Source: a phage. Taken from it: a stretch of DNA of 51,987 nt. Every line of letters starts with the position of its first letter. Within the stretch, counting starts at the first letter, position 1. The position numbers were made by a program, and so were the translations under genes. Below are positions 24,846 to 43,311 of the stretch, piece by piece. The notes under the pieces are model-generated. The model worked only from the letters and a program-made list of their open reading frames with translations. It made no database searches and was not told the origin of the DNA. The DNA is taken from the sequence record PZ715803.1. One strand, written 5' to 3'.

Positions 24846-25076
24846 TCATTCCCTGTCGAAAGCGTTCCCCCAACGTCCACGCAAGTAACCACATAGCCAA
24901 ATGAATTGAGTGATCGTCAACATTGGCGCGATTGGCTGGTAGTGTTCTGCAATGATGCCCTTCATTACTTCATCAACATACTTCCCGCGCTTTTCCACAT
25001 CAGCTTTCATCGCCTCGCCGCACTTTTTAGCCTGGCGTTTAGCTGCGTTGAATTGCGCCTCGTTCATTCCAAACAT
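24846..25076 (-). CDS. Hypothetical protein
   Basis: 76 aa; start overlaps stop of the upstream small ORF. Confidence 0.6.
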   Translation of the reverse strand: MFGMNEAQFNAAKRQAKKCGEAMKADVEKRGKYVDEVMKGIIAEHYQPIAPMLTITQFIWLCGYLRGRWGNAFDRE

Positions 25077-25204
25077 TACAGACCTCTACCCTTCCACAAG
25101 TTGTACATTTCGAAATAGTGCATTGCTGTTTCAGTGTCGCCGCGCTCCAATGCTTCCTCTTGCTTCTGTGCGCACCACTGCGACGGTTTTATGTAGTTAT
25201 CCAT
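25076..25204 (-). CDS. Small hypothetical protein (about 41 aa, below ORF-track cutoff)
   Basis: ATG with AAGGTGA RBS; TAATG overlap with downstream gene; fills an otherwise empty gap. Confidence 0.4.
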   Translation of the reverse strand: MDNYIKPSQWCAQKQEEALERGDTETAMHYFEMYNLWKGRGL

Positions 25205-25260
25205 TGAATCACCTTAACTAAAAAATTCATCGTTAGAATGAGATTTATGCGCTCCTATGG

Positions 25261-25584
25261 CTATTCATTTTCGTTAAATTCTCCGCGCATTATGCGCTTG
25301 ATGTTTTCCAGTGAGTTGTGCTTGTACTCGTTCCACTGCTCAGTGGTGAAATTCATGCTCCTGGGAGATCCCAATTCTTCGCTAATTAGATCGTCAATCA
25401 ATTGGCTCACCTCGTCGACAACAAGTTCGTTGGTTTGTTCGATGTTCTCCACGCATTCAAAACCCTGAATGCATCCACCTAAAACCTGTTGACGCTTTTT
25501 AGCCTCATCAAGCGTGTCACAAATTGCGCGACGCTCCTGCTTGTTTTCGTTAGTTCCGATCTTGTAGTAGTGAATGAAAATCAT
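25261..25584 (-). CDS. Hypothetical protein
   Basis: ATG 25584 overlapping upstream stop (ATGA). Confidence 0.55.
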   Translation of the reverse strand: MIFIHYYKIGTNENKQERRAICDTLDEAKKRQQVLGGCIQGFECVENIEQTNELVVDEVSQLIDDLISEELGSPRSMNFTTEQWNEYKHNSLENIKRIMRGEFNENE

Positions 25585-25844
25585 AATCCGCACTCCTCCA
25601 CAGTCTCGTTTTTGCGCTTCCAGTTTTCGACTTGCTGATCTCTGTATCCGTTCTCTCCGAACCAAGCCGCTGTTTCTGCCTGATCAGTGCCAACAGGAAC
25701 AAATGCGTGTTCAAGCTGGTTAAAAACTTCACGCGCCACTGGCTCAGGAATTTTAACAGTTGCCTGGATGCCGTCATCATCTCGCCAGCCAAAGGCCGCT
25801 AACATAATGCGCGCTTGCTGCTCTGACAGGTTAATCGTGATCAT
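25581..25844 (-). CDS. Hypothetical protein
   Basis: ATG 25844 overlapping upstream stop. Confidence 0.6.
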   Translation of the reverse strand: MITINLSEQQARIMLAAFGWRDDDGIQATVKIPEPVAREVFNQLEHAFVPVGTDQAETAAWFGENGYRDQQVENWKRKNETVEECGL

Positions 25845-26053
25845 TCTTCTACTACCTCGCATTCGTCATGGTTAACACTAATATTGTCGCCAGCCTTGAT
25901 AAACTCGCTGTTACGCGGCGCAATAACACAATAAGATCCGTCGCTGAAATGACCGTCAACTTCCAGCACATCACCAACAACCAAACCGCATTGCTCCAGA
26001 GTGATTGAACCGTCTCCGTTGATAGTGTCGATTTTGGTGATTTTGATTTTCAT
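25841..26053 (-). CDS. Hypothetical protein
   Basis: 70 aa; element promoter upstream. Confidence 0.6.
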   Translation of the reverse strand: MKIKITKIDTINGDGSITLEQCGLVVGDVLEVDGHFSDGSYCVIAPRNSEFIKAGDNISVNHDECEVVEE

Positions 26054-26110
26054 TGCGCTTTCCTCTGTTTCGCTTCAATAAGGGCACTTTACCAAATGCC
26101 CTTGCGGAAG

Positions 26111-26129
26111 TTTTAACAAAAAGTGCTAT
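26111..26129 (-). promoter_or_regulatory. 19-bp element copy, then 22 bp, then TAAAGT; promoter module for 25841..26053 and downstream genes
   Basis: Exact consensus on minus strand abutting the stop codon of 26129..26416. Confidence 0.55.
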
Positions 26130-26416
26130 TAGCTCAGATAGTAAAGCTCATCGCGCACAAAATCGTCAAAATCAGATTGCGTTAATGGTCGATCCTCTAA
26201 TGCTGCCTGTTCAATCATTTCAACCAGGGCGCAATCCATATCAAGGTAATGAGCATCAAAATCATACCATGACGCCATTTCACGCGCCCATGAGCGGCAA
26301 TTCTTGAATCCGTAACTGCGGATACAGTTTGCCGTGTGAAATGAGTCATTCCAACCACGCTCAAGCGCTGCCTTTTCGAATGCGTTAATCAACATCTTAC
26401 GATTGCTTTTAGCCAT
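26129..26416 (-). CDS. Hypothetical protein
   Basis: 95 aa; GGAGG RBS. Confidence 0.65.
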   Translation of the reverse strand: MAKSNRKMLINAFEKAALERGWNDSFHTANCIRSYGFKNCRSWAREMASWYDFDAHYLDMDCALVEMIEQAALEDRPLTQSDFDDFVRDELYYLS

Positions 26417-26458
26417 TTTTTCCTCCTTTTAGCGCCACCGAAGCGGCGCGATTAAACA

Positions 26459-26635
26459 TTATTTCTTCCCGGTCAGGATGTAACGCTTGCCGTTTTTAAA
26501 TCCATCGCCGTAGCCGTAACATGCGCCAGCTAGGAAGATAATCATTCCGCCGATTGACTCAACAATGCCGCTATAACCATATGCCAAGTGGGAACCAGCG
26601 ATAAGGGCAATAAAGGTGATAATTACTCTTTTCAT
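26459..26635 (-). CDS. Small membrane protein
   Basis: Hydrophobic, Gly-rich; ATG 26635 overlapping upstream stop. Confidence 0.5.
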   Translation of the reverse strand: MKRVIITFIALIAGSHLAYGYSGIVESIGGMIIFLAGACYGYGDGFKNGKRYILTGKK

Positions 26636-26895
26636 TCGTGATCCCATACGTCGCACTTTTTGACAACCAGCAAACGCAGCTTGTAAGGTCTGAACTTGTG
26701 CAACTTTTTAGCGTATTCGCGCGCTTCGCTGTAGCTATTGAACTCCATAGCCCAAAAGCCGAAAGCATCATCCGTCAGATATTCCCAATCCCCACTAATA
26801 ACGCGGCGGCGTTGCAGATAATAAATCTTGCATTCTGTGCAAGCAACGATCCGGTATTCCGGCTTAAACAGTCGTTTCAATGCGTTAAAAACCAT
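26632..26895 (-). CDS. Hypothetical protein
   Basis: 87 aa. Confidence 0.6.
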   Translation of the reverse strand: MVFNALKRLFKPEYRIVACTECKIYYLQRRRVISGDWEYLTDDAFGFWAMEFNSYSEAREYAKKLHKFRPYKLRLLVVKKCDVWDHE

Positions 26896-26994
26896 AGTAG
26901 CGCCCTCATGCTATAAAGAAAAAGTAGCATTGATAATACCGCAATCATTGCGGAATGAAAATCAAAAGGTGGCTTAGGATTCGTTGCGTTATTG

Positions 26995-27375
26995 TTATTT
27001 CCCAGCATTGCGCGCAATCCTCTTGTATCCATAGTAGAAATCATCGCCTACGCCACGGAATTTTAACGCGTTACGCGCCAGGCGGCGGATTCGACGATTA
27101 TCCAGTTTGCCGTAATTTATCGGTGCTTTAATCGTCTTGATTGGGCAGCCGCGATGATTAGTGATTCGTTTAAGAGTGGCAACAATACCCTCAAGCGCAC
27201 GGATAGCGAATCCGTCGAATCCAAGATCTCTATTGATTAGATAGCCATTGATACCAGGGATTCCGAATCTTTTGCTATCAACCTTAACAATCTGGCCCTT
27301 CTTCATTCCGCTATCTGGAATTGCGTAAGTAACTAAGAATTTAGTGCCGACGCGAATTTTTCTGATGTTAACCAT
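26995..27375 (-). CDS. Hypothetical protein
   Basis: 126 aa, basic. Confidence 0.65.
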   Translation of the reverse strand: MVNIRKIRVGTKFLVTYAIPDSGMKKGQIVKVDSKRFGIPGINGYLINRDLGFDGFAIRALEGIVATLKRITNHRGCPIKTIKAPINYGKLDNRRIRRLARNALKFRGVGDDFYYGYKRIARNAGK

Positions 27376-27445
27376 TGTGATTTCCTCTTGATTGTTGATG
27401 TGAGCATTATAGCGGGGCCGATAACCCCGCGTTTAGCAATTCGTG

Positions 27446-28036
27446 CTATTTAATCTGTGTGTGCTTCCATTTGACAGTATTGACGATCTCGTTTACAGCC
27501 AGCTCCGGCTTGCCGTCCTGCAAGTGGAAATCATAGTGGTGGATTCGATAGTGATAACCGCTCAGGTCAATGTAGTCTCTCGAATCGCCAGCAAACGTGA
27601 AGCCGTCGCGATGCAATCGGCAAATATGCACTTCATGCCCTGCCTTAACCAGCGGCTTGATTTCTTCGGGGAATCCGCCATCACTGATCACAACCGCCAA
27701 ATCTCGGTACATCTCGTGAATCTCTTCAACCATTCGACGCCCGAAATAGTGATCTCCAAAAACTGGCTTCATTACATCCTCGCTAATCCAGATCATGAAT
27801 TGTCGAGGTGACTTGCCGCCTAAGATAACTTGAGGCTTTTCTTTTTGTTCTCGGTCGTTGTACAGGTCCATAAATTCATCGTATCTGTACACGCCCAGCA
27901 TGGAAAACGCAATATCGAACATCGGCTGTTTGAATGACGCCTTAACCGCTGGGTAACGATGGCCCGTTAGGTAAGCTGCAATAGTGTCCTTTCCACAACC
28001 AGGCGGCCCATTAAGGATAATAATGTCTCGCTTCAT
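27446..28036 (-). CDS. P-loop kinase (polynucleotide kinase-like)
   Basis: Walker A GPPGCGKDT at N-terminus; 196 aa. Confidence 0.75.
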   Translation of the reverse strand: MKRDIIILNGPPGCGKDTIAAYLTGHRYPAVKASFKQPMFDIAFSMLGVYRYDEFMDLYNDREQKEKPQVILGGKSPRQFMIWISEDVMKPVFGDHYFGRRMVEEIHEMYRDLAVVISDGGFPEEIKPLVKAGHEVHICRLHRDGFTFAGDSRDYIDLSGYHYRIHHYDFHLQDGKPELAVNEIVNTVKWKHTQIK

Positions 28037-28038
28037 GA

Positions 28039-28230
28039 TTATTCTCCCCTTGCTTTCAACACAGTAATTTCTGTTGTCTCGCTTAAAACCTTGAAATTTC
28101 TATTCTCGCTTTTAATCGTCATATTGACAATCATAACCTGACCGCGCTCTATCATGTCGGCAAGCTCTCTAAGGTGACATGCAGTTTTGGCAATCTCTTC
28201 GCTTTTTTTGTCAAATGGCGGCAATTGCAT
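28039..28230 (-). CDS. Hypothetical protein
   Basis: 63 aa. Confidence 0.55.
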   Translation of the reverse strand: MQLPPFDKKSEEIAKTACHLRELADMIERGQVMIVNMTIKSENRNFKVLSETTEITVLKARGE

Positions 28231-28374
28231 TTAGTTTTCTCCATAGCGTGAGTTGATATTATGCAGCATTTCGCGTCTATGGCGCTTCTTGCGCTGTTTG
28301 TTCACAAACTCCACATGCTCATCGTACCCGCGACGCTTCTTTTTGGTAATGATTTTTTCAAAGTTACGCATCAT
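28231..28374 (-). CDS. Small basic protein (47 aa, below ORF-track cutoff)
   Basis: ATGATG start with AAGGGGG RBS; stop adjacent to next start codon. Confidence 0.4.
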   Translation of the reverse strand: MMRNFEKIITKKKRRGYDEHVEFVNKQRKKRHRREMLHNINSRYGEN

Positions 28375-28430
28375 TTCCCCCCTTAGGTTTTCTCAACATG
28401 GCGCACTGCATGAATGCGCCATAGCAAGAA

Positions 28431-28616
28431 TCACCAATCAAATTTCTGTTTGTCTCTGATGATCTCGTAAATTACTAACCACACCCAAACAAACCAGAAA
28501 GCGAGAACTATTTTATCGTCCTTGTCTGTCGCGCCAGAATATTTCGCAAACGCGCGGAACGTGAATAATCCTGAAATGTAAAGAAAAACAACCAAAAAAG
28601 CAAGTAACCAAATCAT
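28431..28616 (-). CDS. Small membrane protein
   Basis: Two hydrophobic segments; start overlaps upstream stop. Confidence 0.5.
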   Translation of the reverse strand: MIWLLAFLVVFLYISGLFTFRAFAKYSGATDKDDKIVLAFWFVWVWLVIYEIIRDKQKFDW

Positions 28617-28876
28617 TTATTTTCTCCTTCTACTACCAGAGTGTAAAGCAGAACAGGCTCTACCATGTCGCGGCGGCGTGGCTCTCGTGGCGAATCGGGC
28701 CATGCGCATTTCCCGTTTGACACAATATGTCCTACCAGGTCGCTAAGTTTTGAGATTCCATCTCGACGAATAACGTTGTACCCAATATCCTTGCCGTCAA
28801 TAGAATGGATCGCAAAGAAGCTCGGAGCGCCATCAATAATGTCTACCGCTTTAAAAAACTCGATCTTGTTAGCCAT
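28613..28876 (-). CDS. Hypothetical protein
   Basis: 87 aa; element promoter upstream. Confidence 0.6.
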   Translation of the reverse strand: MANKIEFFKAVDIIDGAPSFFAIHSIDGKDIGYNVIRRDGISKLSDLVGHIVSNGKCAWPDSPREPRRRDMVEPVLLYTLVVEGENK

Positions 28877-28932
28877 GATTTAATCCTCGTTTGTTGTTGA
28901 TGGGCTTACTATACCGCAAGCCCGTTGAGATG

Positions 28933-28951
28933 TTTTAACAAAAAGTGCTAT
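28933..28951 (-). promoter_or_regulatory. 19-bp element copy, then 22 bp containing a hairpin, then TATAGT
   Basis: Exact consensus; last base overlaps the phosphatase stop codon. Confidence 0.55.
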
Positions 28952-29742
28952 TACGCATTAACAAAATCGCCGTCGTCGTGTTCAAAGCACCAGCCAAAAC
29001 CTTTTTCATCCCACAAAAAGAATCGGTTTTTATCATGGCTATGAACATCATAAACCTTGCCTTTGATAAAGCTGGCATTGACCAGGCTGTCTTTGCTGCC
29101 GACGAATCGGGCGCGCTTCGTGATCTTGATTGATTCCACGCCGCAACGCAAACATTTACCATCAACCACGCTAAAACAGTGCTCGCCTTCGCATTCGATT
29201 TTTGACTTCAATTCATCCACGCCGTGAGATTGTATGTGAGCGTGTGGCTTGTCGTATTCCGTGACCTGATAGGTTGTGATCCCCAAGCTGCGGAAGTGCT
29301 TAACCACGTTCGGCGAATCGTCAAAGGCGCAAACAATGTTGTCCAGGCCAATAGCGCGCAAGGCTTCTTCTTTAATAACCGTATCCTTTCGGTTGTCCTC
29401 CTGGCGGCGCATGATGATTTCGTCAAACTTCACGCCGTTCTCATTCAACCATTTGCAGGTTTCATAGCGAACCTCGTCGCTGCGTCCGGTCAAGATGACG
29501 ATGGCAAATCCCGACACCCATAAACCGTTAATAACCGCGATAGTGCTTTTAATCGGTGAATCTCCGGCGGCGGCCCTGTTAAACTCGCGCCACGATTCCG
29601 TAAGGTGCAAGTTTTCAGTTGGCAGCAAATGCAAACGATGCGATCCGTCCGATAGTGTTCCGTCCAGGTCAACGATAACAATCGGCTTGCTGGTGATTAA
29701 TTCGTACTTCTTGCCCCACAGTTCGAAAGTGTATTTTTTCAT
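28951..29742 (-). CDS. HAD-family phosphatase (polynucleotide 3'-phosphatase-like) with Cys-rich C-terminal region
   Basis: DxDGT motif (VDLDGTLSDG) near N-terminus; C-terminal CxxC...CxxC. Confidence 0.75.
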   Translation of the reverse strand: MKKYTFELWGKKYELITSKPIVIVDLDGTLSDGSHRLHLLPTENLHLTESWREFNRAAAGDSPIKSTIAVINGLWVSGFAIVILTGRSDEVRYETCKWLNENGVKFDEIIMRRQEDNRKDTVIKEEALRAIGLDNIVCAFDDSPNVVKHFRSLGITTYQVTEYDKPHAHIQSHGVDELKSKIECEGEHCFSVVDGKCLRCGVESIKITKRARFVGSKDSLVNASFIKGKVYDVHSHDKNRFFLWDEKGFGWCFEHDDGDFVNA

Positions 29743-29753
29743 TATCAAACCTA

Positions 29754-29975
29754 TCAATTAAAATGGATTTGCCTGTATTCTATTTCATCTGCCAGATCAT
29801 TTAACTTATCTGCCAGCTTGCGCACTTGGTCAACGGTAAGTATCGACCTAAAATCCGGCCTACGACCACCTTCAAACGTGCCATCAATAAACACGCGATC
29901 GCCGAACTTGTATACATCAATCGCGTCGCCGTGGTTATCAGTAAACCTGTGCTTGACGCGATTATTTGTTTTCAT
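29754..29975 (-). CDS. Hypothetical protein
   Basis: 73 aa. Confidence 0.6.
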   Translation of the reverse strand: MKTNNRVKHRFTDNHGDAIDVYKFGDRVFIDGTFEGGRRPDFRSILTVDQVRKLADKLNDLADEIEYRQIHFN

Positions 29976-30192
29976 CTTTCACTTCCTCAAATTCAGCCAT
30001 TACCATAGCGTGTGCCATAACCTTAGTGCCTTCGCCGCCGTTCAGGAACATGCGATGCCCCTTACTATTGCTCACGTAAAAAGATCCGGTTGATGATTTC
30101 AGTTTTTGCGCCGTATAGATTTCGCCAGGCTTGAACATGCCAGAGCAAGCATAGTTAACGGAAACGCATTTCATCTTCTTTTTAATGTACAT
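29962..30192 (-). CDS. Hypothetical protein
   Basis: ATG 30192 with AAGGAG RBS; element promoter with consensus TATAAT upstream. Confidence 0.6.
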   Translation of the reverse strand: MYIKKKMKCVSVNYACSGMFKPGEIYTAQKLKSSTGSFYVSNSKGHRMFLNGGEGTKVMAHAMVMAEFEEVKDENK

Positions 30193-30246
30193 CGTTTTAT
30201 CTCCTTCGTTGAAAGTGAGGCCATTATACCTGGCCCCACATTTGAG

Positions 30247-30265
30247 TTTTAACAAAAAGTGCTAT
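30247..30265 (-). promoter_or_regulatory. 19-bp element copy, then 21 bp, then TATAAT
   Basis: Exact consensus element and consensus -10 hexamer. Confidence 0.6.
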
Positions 30266-30414
30266 TTCTTAATACATAGCGTGTGAGTGTACGCATAAAA
30301 CCTGTTGTTGTTCTTGATCTGCTCTCGCGCCTCAATGCAAGATTGCTGGCTATTCATTTCGATATGGTCAACGCCGCCATCAATCATAAGAATCAGCAAA
30401 ATCCAGGTAGCCAT
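30262..30414 (-). CDS. Small hydrophobic protein (about 50 aa, below ORF-track cutoff)
   Basis: ATG with GAGGTGAGAG upstream; stop codon TAG lies inside the element copy. Confidence 0.3.
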   Translation of the reverse strand: MATWILLILMIDGGVDHIEMNSQQSCIEAREQIKNNNRFYAYTHTLCIKK

Positions 30415-30490
30415 CTCTCACCTCAATAAAAGCTAAACAGGTAGGCAAACAATCCGATCCATGCGGCGACGTGCGCCGCAGTGAGCAAAC

Positions 30491-31384
30491 TCAAATCTTC
30501 ACCTTCCACTTAACCATCGTTCCGCGCTTGATGCTGATCTCACCCGCAACAGTCCGGTTTTTAGTGCCGCCGTAGTGAAGCAGGAGAATAACAACATCAT
30601 CATGAATCTCGATCGTCTTTGGTGTAGCCGTTAATTCATACCATGTGCCGTCATCAAGCCGGACTCCTTTTAGCGTGGCTGCAACTGGCATATCTTCAAT
30701 CGCGCCCTGCGTTACGATTTCTTGATAGGCAAAGGCGCTCTTATCAATACGCCAGCCTCCAGGCGCTTTCATTTCGGCAGCCGCTTTGTGGATCTCCTCG
30801 CCAATGATTTTTTGAATTGACGTCTTTCCGCCGCCGAATGGAGTTTCTCCAAACAAGTGTTTTGTAATGTCTTCCACGTAGTACACTTTATCCTCTTCGT
30901 TGTGCGGATTGAATTTGTTGTGACCGTTGACAAAGAAATCAACTTTCAACTCTGATTTCGTGCCATCGCTATAAACGCCATTGTCGCGCGATGTGTAGCG
31001 AATCGTTGACTTACCAGTCGTGTGGAACGTGATCGGATACTTGATATTATCCACGCTTAAGCACCACAGCTTTTTGTAGTCGCAGGTTTTCATGTGGACC
31101 ATCGGAATCTCTGCGCGTTCCGGTGAGCGCACTGGTAACACCTGGCCCTTATATGGCTTGTAGTGCAAACATGTGTAGCCTGGCATTGCATAGCCATAGT
31201 CTTTAAGGGCGTGGTAGTGCGTATTGTGTGCATCAATAAAGTGTTCAATCTCCATTGTTGATGGGCTTAGTTTGTCGCTATTCATATCAACCTTATGGCA
31301 TGTTTTTTCATCGGTAAAAATGTAATGACCAATGCCGCGAGATTCGAAGGTGATCGGGAATTTAATGTCAGCAAGTTTTAACAT
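30491..31384 (-). CDS. Hypothetical protein with internal tandem duplication
   Basis: 297 aa; repeated IK(F/Y)PITF..G module at residues about 7 and 115. Confidence 0.75.
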   Translation of the reverse strand: MLKLADIKFPITFESRGIGHYIFTDEKTCHKVDMNSDKLSPSTMEIEHFIDAHNTHYHALKDYGYAMPGYTCLHYKPYKGQVLPVRSPERAEIPMVHMKTCDYKKLWCLSVDNIKYPITFHTTGKSTIRYTSRDNGVYSDGTKSELKVDFFVNGHNKFNPHNEEDKVYYVEDITKHLFGETPFGGGKTSIQKIIGEEIHKAAAEMKAPGGWRIDKSAFAYQEIVTQGAIEDMPVAATLKGVRLDDGTWYELTATPKTIEIHDDVVILLLHYGGTKNRTVAGEISIKRGTMVKWKVKI

Positions 31385-31463
31385 GGTGCTTTCTCCTGAT
31401 TGGTTTTGTGGGCGACGCCGTGCCGCCCTATGTGATTTATTATGCCTGGTTATCGCTTTCGAG

Positions 31464-31482
31464 TTTTAACAAAAAGTGCTAT
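31464..31482 (-). promoter_or_regulatory. 19-bp element copy, then 22 bp, then CATAAT
   Basis: Exact consensus; directly downstream of the stop of 31483..31668. Confidence 0.55.
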
Positions 31483-31668
31483 TTAGAATTTTACCTCTTC
31501 CACAAGCTCAACCATCTTGTAACCAAGACGATAAGAGTCACCGAACAACAAGATCCCCATAAATTCATCGTGGCTTATTGACTCTTTGCCAACCGTTCTA
31601 AGCTCTCCGTTGTGAATCACAGTATCGCCGATCTTGATTTCTGATTTATGGACTAATTTCGTTTTCAT
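31483..31668 (-). CDS. Hypothetical protein
   Basis: 61 aa. Confidence 0.55.
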   Translation of the reverse strand: MKTKLVHKSEIKIGDTVIHNGELRTVGKESISHDEFMGILLFGDSYRLGYKMVELVEEVKF

Positions 31669-31683
31669 TTATTCACCCGCTAA

Positions 31684-31869
31684 TTAAAAGAAAGCTACAT
31701 AGTTTGCAATGCCTTTTGCGTCGTCGTTTGGCATTGCTTTTACAGCCAGGTCATAACCCGCCTCTACCTTCTGCTTTGCTGTTTCTTCGTTGTAGCCCCA
31801 GATAACCAGGATTTTAACTACGTTTTCTTTGTTCAGGACTTTAAGGTCTTTGGTGATGCGACGTGCCAT
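31684..31869 (-). CDS. Hypothetical protein
   Basis: 61 aa; element promoter with hairpin and CATCGAAAC leader upstream. Confidence 0.6.
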   Translation of the reverse strand: MARRITKDLKVLNKENVVKILVIWGYNEETAKQKVEAGYDLAVKAMPNDDAKGIANYVAFF

Positions 31870-31926
31870 TTTTGTTTCCTCAATCTCGTTTCGATGAGGC
31901 TATTATGCCAGGCTTTGCGCCTGGCG

Positions 31927-31945
31927 TTTTAACAAAAAGTGCTAT
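31927..31945 (-). promoter_or_regulatory. 19-bp element copy, then 22 bp containing hairpin GCCAGGC..GCCTGGC, then CATAAT
   Basis: Exact consensus; stop codon of the upstream lipoprotein gene embedded in the element. Confidence 0.55.
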
Positions 31946-32666: not shown

Positions 32667-32697
32667 TTCCTTTCCTCCAGTTGTTGACTGTTGGCGC

Positions 32698-34584: not shown

Positions 34585-34603
34585 ATAGCACTTTTTGTTA
34601 AAA
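34585..34603 (+). promoter_or_regulatory. 19-bp element copy, then 22 bp, then TACATT
   Basis: Exact consensus immediately after the stop codon of 34321..34584. Confidence 0.55.
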
Positions 34604-34661
34604 CTCAATCCTCGTATTCCTGTACATTACACGCATCGACAACGAATGCGAGGATTTGAAA

Positions 34662-34814
34662 ATGGTTACTCTGATTACCTGGGAACACGAAAACAGCCAG
34701 CCGGAAGCGCGCGAATTTGAAACCGTAGCCGCTTGTTACAACCTGGCGAAAAATGGCGGATTCTACAAGGCGCAAATCGTTAACGAGTTTGGAGTTGTTG
34801 ACTATGAGTTCTAA
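34662..34814 (+). CDS. Small hypothetical protein (50 aa, below ORF-track cutoff)
   Basis: ATG with GAGGAT RBS right after the element promoter; overlaps next start. Confidence 0.45.
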   Translation: MVTLITWEHENSQPEAREFETVAACYNLAKNGGFYKAQIVNEFGVVDYEF

Positions 34815-35109: not shown

Positions 35110-35165
35110 ACGATGTGCGCCTGAATGGTATATTACACCCATCGACAACAAGAGAGGATTTAAAG

Positions 35166-35644: not shown

Positions 35645-35856
35645 TGGCAAAGCAATTAAAACTTAAATGCGTAGAAACTTATAACTCAATTTGGAAATTT
35701 ACGCGCGAAAAAGAATATCCACTAATGGGAAATCTCAAAGAAGATCCTCATGTAATTTCAGATAATGGTATTCACCTTTATTTGATGGAATACAACGATG
35801 GGTATATTGGCGCTGGTCTTCCAGGTCATAAATTTAAGCTGAAAAATAAGAAATGA
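35644..35856 (+). CDS. Hypothetical protein
   Basis: TAATG overlap with upstream gene. Confidence 0.6.
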   Translation: MAKQLKLKCVETYNSIWKFTREKEYPLMGNLKEDPHVISDNGIHLYLMEYNDGYIGAGLPGHKFKLKNKK

Positions 35857-35964
35857 GGCTATTTATTTTCAAAAACGCTTGGATGGTGGCGGTTGCAAAT
35901 GACCATTACGGCGGCGACGGAAAAAGAGCGCCACGTCATTCATATTTCAATTGAGGATATTTAA

Positions 35965-36192: not shown

Positions 36193-36202
36193 TTAATCTG
36201 GC

Positions 36203-36219
36203 GGCGTTTTGCCGCCTTT
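36203..36219 (+). other. Hairpin GGCGGCG-TTTT-GCCGCC followed by TTTTAAATG (weak terminator / attenuator)
   Basis: Inverted repeat with T-run. Confidence 0.35.
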
Positions 36220-36234
36220 TAAATGAGGTGAAAA

Positions 36235-36351
36235 ATGATGGATAAAGCTATTGATTTCTTTTTTTATTCGATTATTGGCGCGGCTGGCTTTTTGGTTACT
36301 GCTGCTGGCCTGGCTATTATCTTGGTTGTTATTAAGGAGATTATGCGATGA
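36235..36351 (+). CDS. Small membrane protein (38 aa, below ORF-track cutoff)
   Basis: GAGGTGA RBS; single hydrophobic helix; stop overlaps next start. Confidence 0.45.
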   Translation: MMDKAIDFFFYSIIGAAGFLVTAAGLAIILVVIKEIMR

Positions 36352-36572
36352 GTCAAGACGGATTTTTTGAACGCCTTCAAATGGCAGAAGATGCCGGACT
36401 AAATAAAGAGGCTGCGCTTGAAGTGGCATATAAAATTAAGCCTCTTGATGAGGCTTTAGGTGATATGGATATGGATCTTGAATCAAGCGCAATATTTGCA
36501 GATCCCACTATGATTGTTAATGATTGTGGATGCGATTTCGATCCTGGTTGTGCGCGCTGTTTTCCGTTTTGA
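36348..36572 (+). CDS. Hypothetical acidic protein with Cys-rich C-terminus
   Basis: 74 aa; C-terminal CGCDFDPGCARC. Confidence 0.6.
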   Translation: MSQDGFFERLQMAEDAGLNKEAALEVAYKIKPLDEALGDMDMDLESSAIFADPTMIVNDCGCDFDPGCARCFPF

Positions 36573-36582
36573 GGTAATTACG

Positions 36583-37293
36583 ATGTATAAAGGTTTAATA
36601 TTCTCCCTATTTGATGGATCTGGCAAAGCCGTTAAAGATTGGGCTGATAATGGCTATAAGTGCATTTGCTTTAATGCTGACGGTGGCGATCACGGTGATT
36701 ACCAGTCAGTGCGCATACAGCATGAGAATATCGAATACGTTAACGTCTGGATTGATGAAAGATTTTACCACCGCGCGCGCTGGGAGGAATGGGGCATTCC
36801 TGACTTTATTATGGCATTTCCGCCGTGCACCGACCTTGCAAATAGCGGATCTCGCCATTGGGCCAAAAAACGCCTTGAGAATCCATCGTTCCAGGATGAG
36901 GCCGCCGACACTTGCAGAATCGCGGCTGATATAGCTGATTATTTCGGTGTTCCTTACATGATCGAAAATCCGGTTGGCAAGTTGTCAACGTTATGGCGAA
37001 AGCCTGATTATACGTTCCATCCGTGCGATTACGCTGGCTATCTGCCGGAAGATGATAAACATCCCGACTTCCCTGATATTATTCCGGCACGGGATCGCTA
37101 TTTTAAGAAAACGTGCCTCTGGACTGGCAACGGCTTTGTTATTCCTCCGCGCGCTTTAATCCTGCCGAAAGAGGAAGACAAAGATAATCCAGGCTGGGCC
37201 AAAACTGGCGGTAAGTCATCGCGCACAAAGATGATCCGCTCCCTCACTCCGCGCGGATTTGCTCGCGCCGTCTTTGAGTCAAACTCAAAATAG
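36583..37293 (+). CDS. Putative DNA (cytosine-5)-methyltransferase-like protein
   Basis: FDGSGK (motif I-like), FPPC (catalytic Pro-Cys, motif IV-like), ENPVG (motif VI-like); ATG 36583 with GAGGT RBS. Confidence 0.5.
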   Translation: MYKGLIFSLFDGSGKAVKDWADNGYKCICFNADGGDHGDYQSVRIQHENIEYVNVWIDERFYHRARWEEWGIPDFIMAFPPCTDLANSGSRHWAKKRLENPSFQDEAADTCRIAADIADYFGVPYMIENPVGKLSTLWRKPDYTFHPCDYAGYLPEDDKHPDFPDIIPARDRYFKKTCLWTGNGFVIPPRALILPKEEDKDNPGWAKTGGKSSRTKMIRSLTPRGFARAVFESNSK

Positions 37294-37308
37294 CACTTTT
37301 TGTTAAAA
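37290..37308 (+). promoter_or_regulatory. 19-bp element copy, then 22 bp containing hairpin GCCAGG..CCTGGC, then CATAAT
   Basis: Exact consensus with stop codon TAG of the MTase gene embedded. Confidence 0.55.
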
Positions 37309-37362
37309 GCCAGGTGTAAAAACCTGGCATAATCACATCGAACAAACAAAGGAGATCTGATC

Positions 37363-37749
37363 ATGAATGTTATCTGTAATGAAACCAAAGTATTGATGAA
37401 AGGCCGTTTTAAAACGGTTTATCAGAAGATTGCAGGAAGTGATGATGTGATCGAGGTGGAAGAGTTCCAGGTTAAGACGCTTGTTAAGGGTAGCCGCTGG
37501 CTTCCAGCAAACCGAGATGATTACCGCGCCATTAACACAAAAACCGTTCTTTGCACGTTTGTAGATCATAACATGCCGTGCAAAAAGCACTTTAAGCAGG
37601 GCAAGCGATACCAGATCGAGAAAGGGCGACCGCTTGGAAGCGTTGCGGGTTATGTTTTTGATGAGTGCGGCGACCGCTGGAACCTGTACCGTGAAGAGGT
37701 CGGATTCTCTGCTGGCGGCTGTTATCTGTTTGAGGGCAAATATCTGTGA
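37363..37749 (+). CDS. Hypothetical protein
   Basis: 128 aa; AAGGAG RBS. Confidence 0.7.
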   Translation: MNVICNETKVLMKGRFKTVYQKIAGSDDVIEVEEFQVKTLVKGSRWLPANRDDYRAINTKTVLCTFVDHNMPCKKHFKQGKRYQIEKGRPLGSVAGYVFDECGDRWNLYREEVGFSAGGCYLFEGKYL

Positions 37750-37967
37750 TAAACAGTGAAAACCGTTACAAAGTAACGCATTCTACCACAAAGACTTTCA
37801 AGCCTGGCGATATAGTCAGGCCCATCAAAAAAACGGCGGTAGGTTGGCTGATTGGTTTTTCATATCATAAGGCGCTTTACTTTACGTTTAAGGATGGGAT
37901 TACAGGAGAATGCTACAGCGACCGCCAGCCTGATCGACTTCTGGTTGCAATAGAGCGGATCAAATAG
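37746..37967 (+). CDS. Hypothetical protein
   Basis: 73 aa; overlapping start. Confidence 0.6.
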   Translation: MINSENRYKVTHSTTKTFKPGDIVRPIKKTAVGWLIGFSYHKALYFTFKDGITGECYSDRQPDRLLVAIERIK

Positions 37968-37982
37968 CACTTTTTGACAAAA
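37964..37982 (+). promoter_or_regulatory. Element variant with TTGACA (ATAGCACTTTTTGACAAAA), then 22 bp, then TAAAAT
   Basis: Single T-to-C change creates a consensus -35-like hexamer. Confidence 0.5.
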
Positions 37983-38035
37983 CGGGGTAGTATTGGGCCG
38001 TTAAAATTTACGGCCCACAAAGGAGAAGCTAACGA

Positions 38036-39616
38036 ATGTTTTCATTAGAAACGAACAAATTAACTCCACAGCAAATAATCGCTATGGCTGAAAGCCAGAA
38101 CCTTTCACCAGTTCGCGTATCAATTCAGGCTAACGGCTATCGCCAGTCGTCCAGCTTTTGGGGCGACGTGAAGGATGTAAATAGCGGTCACGATCGCTAC
38201 CCCGTTATTTCTCTTGGTAATGATATTGATGTTGTCGGCAAGCTATCACGCAGCATTGCGCGATCCGTTCAATTCCCTGAATCATCGGCTTACATGCACT
38301 TTATCGGCTGCATTTCTGCCGCTATGCTTGGACGCTTTACGGTTGACTATCACGGAACAGATCAGCCGACTGCGCTTTACGTCGTTACAAGCCAGCCGCC
38401 GTCAACTGGTAAATCTGCGATCAACAGCATGGCTATTGCTCCGATGATTGCGGAAGTTGAGAAGATCAACGAGCAACGCCGCAAGGAAAGAAAGAAAATA
38501 CAGGCAAAGTTGGCAGGTCTTGCAAAGGAGATGAAAAGCGAAAGGTCCGGCGCTGATATGGAATCTCTATACCAGGAAAAAGAGGATCTGGAGGAGAAGC
38601 TGGAAAAGATGTGTGATATAACTTTCCCTGTTTCAGATACAACTCCAGAAGGCTTGGCGAAAATCAACAACAAGCAAGGTAACTTTGCCGTAATATCTGA
38701 CGAAGCAACAAGTATTAACAGTCTGTTAGGCTTGACCTATGCAAATAGCGAAAGGAAGACTAACAGTGAGCTAGTGCTTAAGGCGTGGGATAATGGTCAC
38801 GTATCAATTGCCCGTGCTAATGCCGACAATAATATGAGTTTTCGCGCGCTTGGATGTATGAGCGTTATAGCACAGGATGAAACGATAAGCGGAATCATGG
38901 ACGCTGGATCGCGCGGTATCGGTGTGAGTGAGCGCTTTTTGTTGGTCCGCGAAGAATCATTCTTAGGCCGTCGCTCATTCATTGATGAAAATGGTGATTC
39001 TACCTATGAGGCGGTGGATTCTGAATTGAAAGCCCAATATTATCAATTGGTGCATAACATCATGAGCGAATCAAATATATCGCTGAAAATAAGCCGCTCA
39101 GCTATGCGAGTGCTCAACATTGCTCGCCAGGATATGGAACCGCATCTTGCAGACGGCGGAAAGTATTCTCATACAATGTTACGCGGTGCGCTGGGTAAAA
39201 TGGATAAACAGGTGATCAGGCTTGCTTCCGTCCTGCATGTTATCCGCAACTGGTTTAATCCTGCTGGATACCCGCAGAAGTCGAAAGAGATCGACGTGGA
39301 AACAATGCAAGAGGCGCTGATCATGTTTCAGGAATTGAGCAAAACATACATTAGCGCCGCCAATGCTTCTGGTTATGCTGGTGATGATGCTGAAATGGGC
39401 AAATTGATTGAATTGATCACTAGACACGGCAAGGCTAATAAAGGGATTCTGAATATTCGCGCCCTGTACGAATCAGCGAGAAAGGTAAAACCTTTCGTTG
39501 GTCAAGCTGGCGTAATGAAGAGGATAGAAGGGCACTTGCTGCCAATGCTGGAAGAAAGAAATTATGTTTGTGTTATTAATGGTGTTATTTTTGTCAATCC
39601 AATACTGCTGGGATGA
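38036..39616 (+). CDS. P-loop NTPase with Walker A/B (putative replication or recombination ATPase)
   Basis: 526 aa; Walker A QPPSTGKS, Walker B-like AVISDEA. Confidence 0.8.
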   Translation: MFSLETNKLTPQQIIAMAESQNLSPVRVSIQANGYRQSSSFWGDVKDVNSGHDRYPVISLGNDIDVVGKLSRSIARSVQFPESSAYMHFIGCISAAMLGRFTVDYHGTDQPTALYVVTSQPPSTGKSAINSMAIAPMIAEVEKINEQRRKERKKIQAKLAGLAKEMKSERSGADMESLYQEKEDLEEKLEKMCDITFPVSDTTPEGLAKINNKQGNFAVISDEATSINSLLGLTYANSERKTNSELVLKAWDNGHVSIARANADNNMSFRALGCMSVIAQDETISGIMDAGSRGIGVSERFLLVREESFLGRRSFIDENGDSTYEAVDSELKAQYYQLVHNIMSESNISLKISRSAMRVLNIARQDMEPHLADGGKYSHTMLRGALGKMDKQVIRLASVLHVIRNWFNPAGYPQKSKEIDVETMQEALIMFQELSKTYISAANASGYAGDDAEMGKLIELITRHGKANKGILNIRALYESARKVKPFVGQAGVMKRIEGHLLPMLEERNYVCVINGVIFVNPILLG

Positions 39617-40008
39617 TTATGTTTTTGCTTGATCTGTATAAATGGTGTGAGTCATACGACTGGTTTAACAGGCAGCACATAGCCAAATTTATCTATCAGC
39701 ATAGAGAATGCGAGCGGCTCGCACGGGCCGCCGGACTTACGCCGCGAATGTTCGCCAGCCTTGCATCTAAGGAATTTTGCGCAAGAATGATGACGGCTGG
39801 TTATATAGATGGGGTCTGCGGAAAATACTGGTCCAAAGGATCGTCAAAGCGGCCTTTCGGATTCGAATTGTATAGCCTGGATGGTATGCGCAACGACTGG
39901 ATCAGGGATATGGCGAGAATAGGGGAGATGGGCGATGATGAATTGTTCCAGGCAAAAGCTAATAGACAAGATCTTGAAGCACTGCGCCGTAAATTCAATA
40001 TCACATGA
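39613..40008 (+). CDS. Hypothetical protein
   Basis: 131 aa; ATGA overlap with upstream gene. Confidence 0.65.
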   Translation: MIMFLLDLYKWCESYDWFNRQHIAKFIYQHRECERLARAAGLTPRMFASLASKEFCARMMTAGYIDGVCGKYWSKGSSKRPFGFELYSLDGMRNDWIRDMARIGEMGDDELFQAKANRQDLEALRRKFNIT

Positions 40009-40125
40009 GGATTTTATTCATGCTTTACTTACGCTACTTTATTCAGATATGCGCGCTTTTAGCACCACTGAACATGTTTTATGCAATGATGATGGTGTAT
40101 TACTGGTTACGGTAAAGCGTATGGA

Positions 40126-40144
40126 ATAGCATTTTTTGTTAAAA
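40126..40144 (+). promoter_or_regulatory. Element variant (ATAGCATTTTTTGTTAAAA), then 22 bp hairpin, then TATATT; left arm of a 45-bp inverted repeat with the copy at 43369-43387
   Basis: About 30 bp identical to the reverse complement of 43343-43387. Confidence 0.55.
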
Positions 40145-40205
40145 CGCCCGGCCTAGTGTCGGGTATATTTGTTTCATCGAAACGAAACAACCAAAAGGTA
40201 AAATT

Positions 40206-40430
40206 ATGTCCAGCAAGTTTTTAGTAGTTCGCGTATATAATCATGACAACGGATCTTCTGCTGAAATCCCGACAATTTACGACAGGGATTTTGGATGGAG
40301 TGAGCAATCGGCGGTTGAAAATGAGCGCAAGATTGCAGAAATGTACGGCGACACTTGCAGCATTGAAGTAAGGCAGTACGACGAATCGAACAAGCCAACA
40401 AACGAAACTCATATGTGGCCCGACGCATAA
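40206..40430 (+). CDS. Hypothetical protein
   Basis: 74 aa; single-gene unit between element promoter and terminator. Confidence 0.6.
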   Translation: MSSKFLVVRVYNHDNGSSAEIPTIYDRDFGWSEQSAVENERKIAEMYGDTCSIEVRQYDESNKPTNETHMWPDA

Positions 40431-40437
40431 AAATAAA

Positions 40438-40454
40438 GGAGGCATTAAGCCTCC
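40438..40454. terminator. Bidirectional terminator (GGAGGC-ATTAA-GCCTCC plus T-run) at the convergent junction
   Basis: Hairpin overlapping the spanin stop codon; T5CT4 on plus strand. Confidence 0.6.
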
Positions 40455-40840
40455 TTTTTCTTTTCTCTCCAGTAAAGACAAATCAGCACAATTAACACAA
40501 CCACGCATATGATTACTGGATCGTACCATCTGCCGTTATTACCCTGCACGACCTGAATTTTGTCTGCCTTGATGGTATTGGCCTGAATGGTTGATGTTGT
40601 GAAATCCTTCTTGCTGGACGTGTCCACCTTGTCAACCGCAGATTCCTTTATTGTGGTTTTCTGTTTTGTGCTGGCGTCCTGCTTTGCTGTAATGCCAACT
40701 GTCTGCTTCACGTTCTCCGCGCCAGCCTGTGCTGTGATTTCCGGCTTACTGCCGATTAATCCGGTCAGTGGCGTAACGCTTGAACATCCAGACAAGATCA
40801 CCGCCATTGCGATTGGTGCGATTAAAAATTTCTTCATCAT
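40445..40840 (-). CDS. Unimolecular spanin (N-terminal lipoprotein signal plus C-terminal transmembrane helix)
   Basis: Lipobox ILSGCSS, C-terminal hydrophobic helix [16 protein letters not shown]; ATG overlaps endolysin stop. Confidence 0.65.
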
Positions 40841-41328
40841 TTCAGATCCATTGTGCAATATTTGTATTCGACCTTGCGCCTGTTAAGTAAGCCTTTAGAC
40901 TTCTCGCGCTTTCCTGTTTTGGGGTTATGGTAATACGTCCAACGATAAAGCTGATCGCAAGCCTCGTTTAATTTCCCCTGGTTGATGAGTTTCAGCATTG
41001 TTGAATTTCTGAAAGCTCCCACACCTGCATTGTAAGTGAATGAGTACATTGCTGCACGCATACTATCAGGAATGTCAACCTTAACTTGCTTGTCAACTTC
41101 CTTTTTAGCAACCTGGATATGCTTAGCCAACAAAGCATCACACTCTTTTTTAGTGTACGTTTTCCCCAGGATAACATCTGGTCCGGTGATTCCTGCGCAA
41201 ACCGTCCATACTCCAGCAATATCTTTGTATGGCTTGTATCTTACCCCTTCGATCTCTTCAAGAAGTGGAGAAGTCAAGGCAACCGCAACGCCAAAGGCCG
41301 CCGCCGCCACCCTGTTCTTGATGCTCAT
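40837..41328 (-). CDS. Endolysin, phage lysozyme (GH24-like) with N-terminal signal-anchor-release (SAR) domain
   Basis: Catalytic E-x8-D-x5-T arrangement ([19 protein letters not shown]); N-terminal weakly hydrophobic Ala/Gly-rich helix. Confidence 0.8.
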
Positions 41329-41543
41329 TACTTGCCCCTGATTTCAATAGCTTTTTGAATATCACCTTTTTCGATCGCCTCGTGGAATTTTTTACTATCA
41401 CGCCAGCGAAGGTAAGCACCCCACGCACCGAATGCAGCCATTAAAACAAAGCTGGCAATAGCAATGGTTAACTGACCTGTAGCGGCGCTTGCGATAGATG
41501 AACCGCCAGATCCGGCTGTAGCTGCGTTAATAAAATCTTTCAT
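41328..41543 (-). CDS. Holin (pinholin-like, two transmembrane segments)
   Basis: 71 aa, Gly/Ala-rich hydrophobic segments and charged C-terminus; stop overlaps endolysin start. Confidence 0.6.
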
Positions 41544-41689
41544 TTTTAATGCTCCATATTAATTAAAGTCAATATATTAACCGCATAATAAACGCACATG
41601 ATAAAAATTTAAACAAAAAAAAGAGGCGACAAACGCCGCCCCTTTGCAAGTTTTTGATTTAATTTGTCATTGATTTAAATAAAAATTCA

Positions 41690-42805
41690 TCAATTCATCA
41701 TTTCTGGATAGTGAACAAATCGCCCAACTTCTCCATGCTCTTTGTCGTAAATGATAACCGCTGCACGGCGTCGAGATCTCCAGCCACCGCGCGCGGCGTA
41801 TGCGTCTTTTGCCGCCAGGGTGCTATGTACCTCCACGATCCCAAGCGACGTTTCCGTCACGGTCTGGTGATGCCAGTGCCCTACGTGCGCATACATCGTT
41901 TTTGAGTTTCCGAAGTCCTCCCGCCAATCTGACGCGCACATCATTAGCAAAGTCTCAGGTTTGCGCACTGTGTGCCCGTGATGGTACGCAAGGAAAGTTT
42001 TTCCGTATTGCGTGTGGTGAACAACGCGAGGAGAAACATCAACGTAAACGCGCGGCTCGTTCTCATATGCTGCCGCCATTGCTGCGCGTAGCCAAATCAT
42101 TCCTGATTGGTCGTGATTGCCCTCAACGATCTGGACCTCAACATGTTTATGCTTTAACAGCATTTTATTAATTGCGCGGCGCATTGCACGTATTGCAACG
42201 TAAACCAATTTTGCATATCGGCTATCTTGATCAAGTACGTGACCGCTTGCAGGGGTCACAGCCTCCAGGCCATCGCTATGAAGCATGTCGCCACCAATCA
42301 GGATAACAGCCTTTTCACTGTCAGGTGCGCACATCAAAGCATAGTCGATAAAGTTATTCATAACGCGCTCCGCCGTCGCAGTATCCCAATTTTCGCCGCA
42401 CTCGTGCTTATGGGCCATAGCGCCTAAGTGCATGTCAAAGATCGGATACAATGAAAGCGTTTCATTATAGTCACGCTCCTGCAATGGAACTGGATCTAAT
42501 CGCGGCACTTCCTCGCTAAACGCCTCCATTGCTGCGCGCATCAATGCTTCTAGTTGCTCTTTATCCTTGCTGGTTTTGGTCCACTTGAGGATTATGTTTC
42601 CTTCTTTGTCAGTCATTACTGACTCACCATGAACACCAAAACCAGGCGCTCCGATGGTTGATAACTGTCCTTGCTTTGCAAGACGCGCCGCGCGACGCTC
42701 GACGCTTCTCACATTCATTCCGTACTCTTGAGCGATCTGTTTATATGTCTTACCTGCCGCTCGTTCGATCTTGAATTGCTCATCTGTAATTTTTACATTT
42801 TTCAT
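41690..42805 (-). CDS. Calcineurin-like metallophosphoesterase with N-terminal helix-turn-helix domain
   Basis: DxH, GDxxHxD, GNHD motifs; N-terminal HTH-like segment TYKQIAQEYGMNVRSVERRAARL; ATG 42805. Confidence 0.75.
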   Translation of the reverse strand: MKNVKITDEQFKIERAAGKTYKQIAQEYGMNVRSVERRAARLAKQGQLSTIGAPGFGVHGESVMTDKEGNIILKWTKTSKDKEQLEALMRAAMEAFSEEVPRLDPVPLQERDYNETLSLYPIFDMHLGAMAHKHECGENWDTATAERVMNNFIDYALMCAPDSEKAVILIGGDMLHSDGLEAVTPASGHVLDQDSRYAKLVYVAIRAMRRAINKMLLKHKHVEVQIVEGNHDQSGMIWLRAAMAAAYENEPRVYVDVSPRVVHHTQYGKTFLAYHHGHTVRKPETLLMMCASDWREDFGNSKTMYAHVGHWHHQTVTETSLGIVEVHSTLAAKDAYAARGGWRSRRRAAVIIYDKEHGEVGRFVHYPEMMN

Positions 42806-42899
42806 TCTGCTACCTATCTCATTACTATATGGTACATAACTGTAACAGCGATGATAACGGGTAACGGTAGAACAAACAAGCGCCACATGATAACTATCC

Positions 42900-43142
42900 T
42901 CATTTATAATATTTGCGAGGCTCTCGGATTTTAGTCATTGCCTCTTTGAAATCAATTTTTGTTGGAACTGCTGGAACTCTTACCATTTTTCGCGGCCTTT
43001 CCTTGAGGAAAGTCATCTTGTCGCCGCTAATTATGCTCACATCTGCAATATCAAAGTATTGCGCGATCTTCTTTATATCGTCGGCAATACCGCATTCTTT
43101 AGCGTGATTCCATACCGCATCTCTTCCTTGCTCAACCTTCAT
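42900..43142 (-). CDS. Hypothetical protein
   Basis: ATG 43142 overlapping the upstream small ORF. Confidence 0.5.
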   Translation of the reverse strand: MKVEQGRDAVWNHAKECGIADDIKKIAQYFDIADVSIISGDKMTFLKERPRKMVRVPAVPTKIDFKEAMTKIREPRKYYK

Positions 43143-43311
43143 GCTTATAATATGCCTCCGCTTGTTCAATTGGCGCGTGACCGTATGCAACTTTCAGTAA
43201 AAACATTGCGATCTCCCAATCAAACTGGAATCCTTCCTTTGAACCTCCCTCTACTGAACCTTTTGCTGCCTCTTGAGCAAGATTAAAAGCGCGTTTATCG
43301 AATACCACCAT
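43132..43311 (-). CDS. Small hypothetical protein (59 aa, below ORF-track cutoff)
   Basis: ATG with GAGGAA RBS directly downstream of the element promoter at 43369. Confidence 0.45.
   Translation of the reverse strand: MVVFDKRAFNLAQEAAKGSVEGGSKEGFQFDWEIAMFLLKVAYGHAPIEQAEAYYKHEG

Follow-up and report, generated by a model that had tools for sequence, protein, structure and literature searches.

About half of the proteins of phage T1, mostly the products of small open reading frames (ORFs), are still undetermined according to a 2026 paper on T1-like phages. In phage T7, gp1.8 is non-essential and has been assigned no role (T7 record and a genome-reduction study), and the T7 record assigns no function to gp1.1; our literature search found no assigned function for either protein. 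Here we examine six short ORFs, ORF1 to ORF6 (Table 1), in sequence record PZ715803.1, a 51,987-nucleotide (nt) stretch of phage DNA that is referred to as the window at its full length. The ORFs had been picked out from the sequence in a preliminary description, which regarded them as unannotated frames below a 60-codon cutoff. They are located in two divergent arms that are rich in small accessory genes and that lie between the structural and the replication genes. It is very probable that all six are true genes, short but protein-coding, which belong to a T1-like (Warwickvirus) phage and encode ordinary small accessory proteins.

Identity of the phage and existing annotation

The 25–45 kb section of the window matched 416 phage records by megablast, with the top matches (vB_EcoS-95, tonijn, JLBYU26 and FritzSarasin) showing 95–97% identity at a query coverage of 90–95%. 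By its sequence, the source phage is a T1-like siphophage (Drexlerviridae, Tempevirinae, Warwickvirus), about 97% identical to Escherichia phage vB_EcoS-95 (NC_048132). The six ORFs correspond one-to-one to coding sequences (CDSs) of vB_EcoS-95, where they are annotated as hypothetical proteins, and match them in position, length, strand and neighbours. Thus, the ORFs are unannotated solely with respect to the 60-codon ORF track on which the preliminary description relied. Most of the six are also annotated in FritzSarasin, pSf-1, SECphi27 and BubbaBully. In T1 the homologue of ORF3 bears the name Orf69 (AAP49931), and the T1 CDS Orf18 (AAP49981) spans the ORF6 match. Five of the six ORFs belong to existing Pfam or PHROG families; a search of NCBIfam gave nothing meaningful. 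The six genes are therefore already known, as are the annotation and the families that go with them, and what had been noticed is a gap in an ORF track, not a discovery.

Protein identity to the vB_EcoS-95 counterparts is 68, 98, 96, 98, 89 and 61% for ORF1 to ORF6 respectively. ORF1 and ORF6 are other alleles, which are closer to those of pSf-1 (98%) and FritzSarasin (97%) respectively; nothing else differs. Because these two alleles are so far from vB_EcoS-95 yet match pSf-1 and FritzSarasin, the sequences indicate mosaic allele replacement of single small genes within a backbone that is about 97% identical.

Start signals, junctions and chance expectation

All six ORFs were found on the sequence where they had been placed, each beginning with an ATG. 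The lengths given earlier were correct for ORF2 to ORF6, while ORF1 has 42 codons for amino acids and not 41. Shine–Dalgarno (SD) support, which had been claimed for each start, was seen as an SD-like motif 5–8 nt 5′ of every one of the six ATGs (AAGGTGA for ORF1, AAGGGGGG for ORF2, GAGGTGA for ORF3 and ORF5, and GAGGA for ORF4 and ORF6). The reported start/stop junctions were also present, being TAATG at ORF1, TAA-ATG at ORF2 and ATGA at ORF5, with ORF4 and ORF6 each overlapping the next gene by 11 nt.

Short frames of this kind are common, with 161 ATG-started frames of 25–59 amino acids (aa) within 24.5–44.4 kb. When this pool was filtered for frames that run in the direction of their arm, overlap only a little with longer ORFs in that direction (and so lie in a gap) and have an SD, the sole survivors were ORF1, ORF2, ORF3 and ORF5. 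What removes ORF4 and ORF6 is solely the longest-ORF rule, by which the genes downstream of them are extended too far. Scanning of the region for Rfam families and tRNAs gave neither, and hence no competing RNA.

Table 1. Small ORFs and promoter elements in the window (positions in nt from the first base of the window).
Feature	Position	Strand	Description	Annotated counterpart
ORF1	25076..25204	minus	42 aa, acidic, helical-looking; phrog_1312	vB_EcoS-95 gp56
ORF2	28231..28374	minus	47 aa, pI 10.7; T7 gp1.1-like	vB_EcoS-95 gp45
ORF3	30262..30414	minus	50 aa; T1 Orf69 family, phrog_5579	vB_EcoS-95 gp38
ORF4	34662..34814	plus	50 aa, acidic; DUF7170 (PF23776, phrog_4653)	vB_EcoS-95 gp26
ORF5	36235..36351	plus	38 aa, predicted single-pass membrane peptide	vB_EcoS-95 gp20
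ORF6	43132..43311	minus	59 aa; phrog_2180, T1 Orf18 family; 11-nt overlap with next gene	vB_EcoS-95 gp07
Promoter copy upstream of ORF4	34586..34628	plus	19-mer with TTAAAA, spacer, −10-like TACATT	
Promoter copy upstream of ORF6	43344..43386	minus	19-mer, GC hairpin spacer GCCCGGCCTAGTGTCGGGC, −10-like CATAAT	
19-mer copies (starts)	2743, 13522, 17273, 26110, 28932, 30246, 31463, 31926, 33282, 34586, 35092, 37291, 37965, 40127, 43368, 44438, 46927			
Further small ORF	26877..27008	minus	43 aa (55 aa from upstream ATG at 27044); C-terminal transmembrane segment	vB_EcoS-95 gp49
Further small ORF	35853..35954	plus	33-aa basic peptide; phrog_32259	FritzSarasin bas04_0053

Conservation and selection

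Homologues were counted by tblastn against 50,697 GenBank phage records, and alleles were extracted from the loci of 20 fetched relatives. The ratio dN/dS was calculated by the Nei–Gojobori method on codon alignments. A homologue was present in 642 records for ORF1, 78 for ORF2, 94 for ORF3, 464 for ORF4, 76 for ORF5 and 256 for ORF6. At the fetched loci all homologues keep the ATG and an open frame, and nearly all have an SD-like stretch upstream. Length changes are of whole codons, down to 43–50% protein identity, and the one exception to intact frames is an ORF5 allele that is truncated C-terminally.

Median dN/dS was 0.20 for ORF1, 0.44 for ORF2, 0.11 for ORF3, 0.04 for ORF4, 0.47 for ORF5 and 0.29 for ORF6; the medians for four neighbouring genes of 63–76 aa, used as controls, were 0.02–0.29. 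For the five ORFs other than ORF5, pooled pN/pS was 0.26–0.58 in the true frame, compared with about 1 or more in shifted frames. Codon-position variability decreased from third to first to second position in all six ORFs. Purifying selection thus acts on five of the six, and on this sequence evidence it is near-certain that ORF1, ORF2, ORF3, ORF4 and ORF6 are real genes. A lack of conservation of the reading frames had been named as part of what would dismiss the ORFs; the outcome speaks clearly for these five and probably for ORF5.

ORF4 and its embedded start for the next gene

The strongest constraint of the six was on ORF4, which has a mean column identity of 77% in addition to its very low dN/dS. 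ORF4 scored 98.2 bits against PF23776 (cut-off 27), residues 1–50 aligning to the 52-position model, and PF23776 was present in all 34 of its database homologues; on these matches it is a full-length DUF7170 member. The records with an ORF4 homologue include Drexlerviridae and RB49-like Krischvirus, as well as large phages (111–141 kb) of Aeromonas, Salmonella and Vibrio. An AlphaFold2 model built from 26 homologues had a predicted local distance difference test score (pLDDT) of 94 and a beta-beta-alpha-beta-beta arrangement.

The last codons of ORF4 (34790–34814) hold the ribosome-binding site (RBS) and ATG of the next gene, in the conserved form GGAG-N9-ATG. All DUF7170 homologues that were examined have the next gene's ATG embedded in their conserved C-terminal Tyr-Glu codons (TATGAG or TATGAA), and a conserved Gly codon about 12 nt upstream supplies GGAG or GGGG. 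The embedded start serves four unrelated downstream gene families, including nrdG in an RB49-like Krischvirus (loci L017–L020 and L011 compared). Because the start is kept before four unrelated families, the sequences identify the DUF7170 gene as the carrier of a portable coupling site. This site and the promoter-proximal position of the gene suggest that it moves as a leader cassette.

In JohannLBurckhardt (Henuseptimavirus; locus L011, 10331–10486), the DUF7170 gene lies in the opposite arm relative to the window and again heads a gene run, which is consistent with a gene moving between operons.

Relationships to proteins of known structure were also sought. The ORF4 model showed a weak fold-level resemblance to small inhibitor proteins of phages, such as T4 Dmd (PDB 5hy3_B), with a fold that is common to many unrelated small proteins. 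ORF4 was rejected as a Dmd homologue by sequence, the hhalign probability for the DUF7170 alignment against T4 Dmd being 0.05%; a profile search of PDB sequences with ORF4 did not recover Dmd, and the genomic context of Dmd is different. A weak profile match to Drosophila FI20010p1 (7cfd_B; E 0.047), in which FYKAQIV aligns with FYRAQII over 16 residues, was put down to chance, since it is limited to one short stretch of an unrelated protein of 186 residues. PDB sequence searches with ORF4, ORF1 and ORF6 gave only chance or designed-repeat matches, and the structural neighbours of ORF4 in BFVD are all uncharacterised. Our literature search found DUF7170 in no paper. As a 50-residue protein that is well folded in the model, strongly constrained and widespread, DUF7170 should lend itself readily to functional study.

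ORF1 and ORF2

ORF1 matched phrog_1312 with an E value of 2.5e-22, and T7 gp1.8 matched the same PHROG with an E value of 6.3e-15. The pairwise BLASTP E value between ORF1 and T7 gp1.8 was 5e-8, and by sequence ORF1 is a member of the gp1.8 family. The records with an ORF1 homologue include Autographiviridae podoviruses of Klebsiella, Pectobacterium, Erwinia and E. coli. All 15 ORF1 alleles were intact, each with an ATG and an SD-like purine-rich stretch upstream. In public relatives the ORF1 homologue carries a misleading note, 'neutral zinc metallopeptidase domain'.

The very basic character noted for the ORF2 product was borne out, with 15 Lys and Arg residues among its 47 and the high pI given in Table 1. 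ORF2 scored 23.7 bits against PF08200 (Phage_1_1; gathering cut-off 21) over residues 2–33, and on this match is a member of the T7 gp1.1 family. Its records are confined to Escherichia, Shigella and Salmonella phages, and 12 alleles were intact, with length variation in frame. The 63-aa protein encoded downstream of ORF2 was considered as a homologue of gp1.2, the dGTPase inhibitor, and rejected, as BLASTP did not align it with T7 gp1.2 and a Pfam search gave no match.

ORF3 and ORF6

ORF3 matched phrog_5579 with an E value of 9.8e-23. The family is confined to T1-like phages, with only eight representatives in 1.84 billion proteins; a scan of IMG/VR gave three near-identical loci only, and GenBank phage records were used instead. 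Conserved features are W4, a GG turn and two Cys residues, and the TAG stop of ORF3 doubles as the opening triplet of the promoter element that comes next. The product had been called hydrophobic, which holds for its first ~10 residues but is overstated for the whole, as the grand average of hydropathy is −0.15. This short hydrophobic N-terminus would be taken for a buried strand rather than for a membrane anchor.

ORF6 matched phrog_2180 with an E value of 6e-15, and its 10 alleles were intact. The records with a homologue include T1-like phages of several genera. Homologue searches with ORF6 gave three clusters only, and a three-helix model from a four-sequence alignment was of low confidence (pLDDT 64) and was left out of fold searching.

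ORF5

ORF5 is preceded by a terminator-like hairpin at 36200–36216 and shares its ATGA with the next gene. The single transmembrane helix that had been proposed for its product was recovered as a best 19-residue Kyte–Doolittle window of 2.51, starting at residue 13, with charged residues on either side of the hydrophobic segment (D3 and K4 before; K34, E35 and R38 after). Its 76 records are all Escherichia or Shigella T1-like phages, and every one that was fetched is a Warwickvirus or Hanrivervirus. There was no family match in Pfam, PHROG or NCBIfam. Public relatives give the peptide the misleading name 'translocation/assembly module TamB'.

Since dN/dS is uninformative for ORF5, the case for this gene was built on other features. 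No frame but its own is open in every one of the 10 distinct alleles, and in three relatives stops interrupt an antisense 78-aa ORF at 36193–36429. Conservation extends to the SD and the ATGA junction, and a core of transmembrane length (TAGLAIIL) is kept, with the length of the peptide, in both divergent groups of alleles. In EC147 and 2019SD1 (loci L022 and L023, ~511–535), the gene 3′ of ORF5 (MSQDGFF... family) is disrupted and ORF5 is intact. Taken together, these sequence features make ORF5 probably a real gene.

A repeated early promoter element

A 19-mer, TAGCACTTTTTGTTAAAAC, occurs in 17 copies in the window when up to three mismatches are allowed, compared with an expectation of 0.04 (Table 1). 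The copies in the early arms share the orientation of the genes 3′ of them. Alignment of the flanks showed a −35-like TTAAAA within the 19-mer, followed by a spacer of ~18 nt, usually a GC-rich dyad of variable sequence, and then by a −10 box in the variants TATAAT, CATAAT and TACATT. After the −10 box there is a conserved CATCGAAACGA-like leader, which leads into an SD and then a start codon. The distance from the 19-mer to the first SD-plus-start is 52–63 nt for 12 of 14 early-region copies. ORF4 and ORF6 had been singled out as sitting directly after an element promoter, where a gene is expected, and this was found to be so: each is the first gene after its element, with ATGs 57 and 56 nt past the 19-mer respectively, within the usual range.

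Several further features of the element were observed. The TAG of the 19-mer often abuts, or doubles as, the stop codon of the gene upstream. Read on the opposite strand, the hairpin with GTTTTAAC is terminator-like. An identical 18-nt hairpin, GCCCGGCCTAGTGTCGGG, forms the spacer at 40146–40163 (plus strand) and at 43350–43367 (minus strand), where 0.03 such repeats are expected, and a bidirectional terminator-like hairpin is located at 40435–40457, between converging arms. A literature search on the 19-mer motif found nothing relevant.

Other small ORFs and annotation in relatives

The original list of six was incomplete, as there are at least two more conserved ORFs of less than 60 codons in the region (Table 1). 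The ORF at 26877–27008 is annotated in vB_EcoS-95, pSf-1 and FritzSarasin and is conserved down to 38% identity in BubbaBully (tblastn). The 33-aa basic peptide matched its PHROG with an E value of 1e-19, is 82–100% identical over eight loci, and is annotated in FritzSarasin and BubbaBully. A 60-codon ORF cutoff therefore conceals no fewer than eight real genes within these 20 kb. The value of this result is methodological, as the six short genes, being already in public annotations and family databases, matter little for discovery.

Annotation of these genes is uneven among relatives. PGN590, aaroes, tonnikala and tiwna omit them, and several records are featureless beneath the tblastn match; some deposited relatives, such as PGN590, aaroes and tonnikala, thus share the 60-codon blind spot. 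In PGN590 (locus L006) only long ORFs are listed, nearly all small genes are missing, and spurious antisense ORFs cover the ORF5 region. The annotation problems given here and above were seen at 8027–8155 of L007, at 574–702 of L001 and in L006.

The relative BubbaBully (locus L009, 10864–10959) has a gene for a 31-aa peptide that bears the annotation 'activator of host PrrC lysyl-tRNA endonuclease', ~650 nt upstream of a polynucleotide kinase gene. The first 11 residues of the peptide, MSNFHNEHVMQ, appear to match T4 Stp. No homologue of this Stp-like peptide was found in the window.

Discussion

If the six ORFs are ordinary accessory genes, their expression and action can be pictured as follows. 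Host RNA polymerase would transcribe them from the repeated element, acting as a sigma-70-type promoter made up of the 19-mer with its −35-like box, the spacer and the −10 box. Each ORF would be translated from its own strong SD site, and overlaps of 1, 4 and 11 nt would chain the ORFs to their neighbours by translational coupling. The products would be small non-structural accessory proteins of already catalogued families. The polybasic ORF2 protein is presumably nucleic-acid- or ribosome-binding, that of ORF3 may be a small alpha/beta protein in which two cysteines are conserved, that of ORF5 a single-pass inner-membrane peptide, and that of ORF6 helical. By binding host or phage macromolecules, such proteins might tune infection.

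Some observations weigh against this picture. No homologue of ORF1 to ORF6 has an assigned function, and the mechanistic part of the picture is therefore inferred. A literature search found no ribosome profiling (Ribo-seq) or proteomics for this phage or its relatives. For ORF5, dN/dS over ten alleles was 0.53–0.63, which is not below the level of most other frames (0.59–0.69 in four of the five and 1.01 in the fifth), and in vB_Eco-B1.2 (locus L024, 401–502) a nonsense codon at position 34 cuts the peptide to 33 aa.

Could the ORFs be chance open frames in non-coding spacers, such as promoter leaders and terminators, from which no protein is made? Short ATG-started frames are numerous in these 20 kb, ORF5 follows a terminator-like hairpin, and its dN/dS does not discriminate. 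However, open frames and start signals persist at 43–60% protein identity, across genera and phage families, whereas shifted and antisense frames gain stops. Five of the six have dN/dS values far below 1, and the genome is otherwise tightly packed, with the six frames filling the gaps exactly. We consider a chance origin very improbable. It is also improbable, though less so, that some of the ORFs, chiefly ORF5 and perhaps ORF4, serve mainly as coupling leaders that bring ribosomes to the overlapping gene, with the peptide itself mattering little. The ATGA overlap of ORF5 would suit such a role, as would the finding that phages without ORF5 are the only ones in which the downstream gene comes with an SD and a start of its own; there is no clear purifying selection on the ORF5 amino acids, and the GGAG-N9-ATG at the 3′ end of ORF4 starts four unrelated genes across phage families. 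A dispensable peptide, however, is hard to reconcile with the tight constraint on ORF4 and its confidently modelled fold, with the retention of a transmembrane-length core and of length in both ORF5 allele groups, or with an ORF5 that is intact in EC147 and 2019SD1 despite a disrupted downstream gene.

A third proposal refines the accessory-gene reading and does not exclude it: at least one of the six could be an anti-defence or host-takeover inhibitor, for example ORF4 as a Dmd-like antitoxin or inhibitor, or ORF2 as a nucleic-acid-binding shut-off factor. We regard this as plausible on priors, namely early position, mosaic exchange and the inhibitor-like fold of the ORF4 model, but on the unlikely side. 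The promoter-proximal or early-arm positions fit it, as do the swaps of ORF1 and ORF6 alleles in 97%-identical genomes and the spread of DUF7170 over unrelated phage families. Against it stand the failure of hhalign to relate ORF4 to Dmd, the uncharacterised state of all the BFVD neighbours, and the T7 precedents, of which gp1.8 is non-essential without an assigned role and gp1.1 is given no function in the T7 record. Less probable still is a bolder version, in which DUF7170 would be a mobile promoter-proximal leader cassette encoding a small acidic protein of Dmd/Acr-like fold that inhibits a host factor, and bringing its own RBS and start for the next gene, or in which at least one of the six would be an anti-defence gene shared between T1-like and T7-like phages (gp1.1, gp1.8). 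The leader-cassette reading, if true, would explain the spread of DUF7170 over Drexlerviridae, Krischvirus (before nrdG) and other large phages.

As accessory genes, the ORFs compare closely with genes of T1 and T7. The T1 homologues lie in equivalent arms: Orf69 (T1 3389–3538) is 48% identical to ORF3 over the full length, and Orf18 (T1 40052–40261) is 43% identical to ORF6 over 46 residues, but is 69 aa long with a longer C-terminus. T7 gp1.1 and the ORF2 product have an identical N-terminus, MRNFEK, similar lengths (42 and 47 aa) and an extreme basic charge, although the similarity is limited to the first ~30 residues and the PHROG match is weak (E 0.06). T7 gp1.8 and the ORF1 product have in common the core SxWC...Y..(L/M)(Y/W).LWK.RG, and are connected by intermediates, which in Teseptimavirus HZ2R8 occupy the gene-1.8 slot and in Drulisvirus P284 follow the gp1.7-like kinase. 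The ORF1 product differs in lacking the 14-residue N-terminal extension of gp1.8 and in having a 7-residue insertion, ERGDTET. In HZ2R8, P284 and T7 the gene comes right after that of the gp1.7 nucleotide kinase, whereas in the window ORF1 is ~2.2 kb from a P-loop kinase gene (27446–28036) and follows another gene; membership of the family does not strictly require synteny. T1-like and T7-like phages thus draw on a common pool of tiny accessory genes (gp1.1 and gp1.8) that were first sequenced decades ago.

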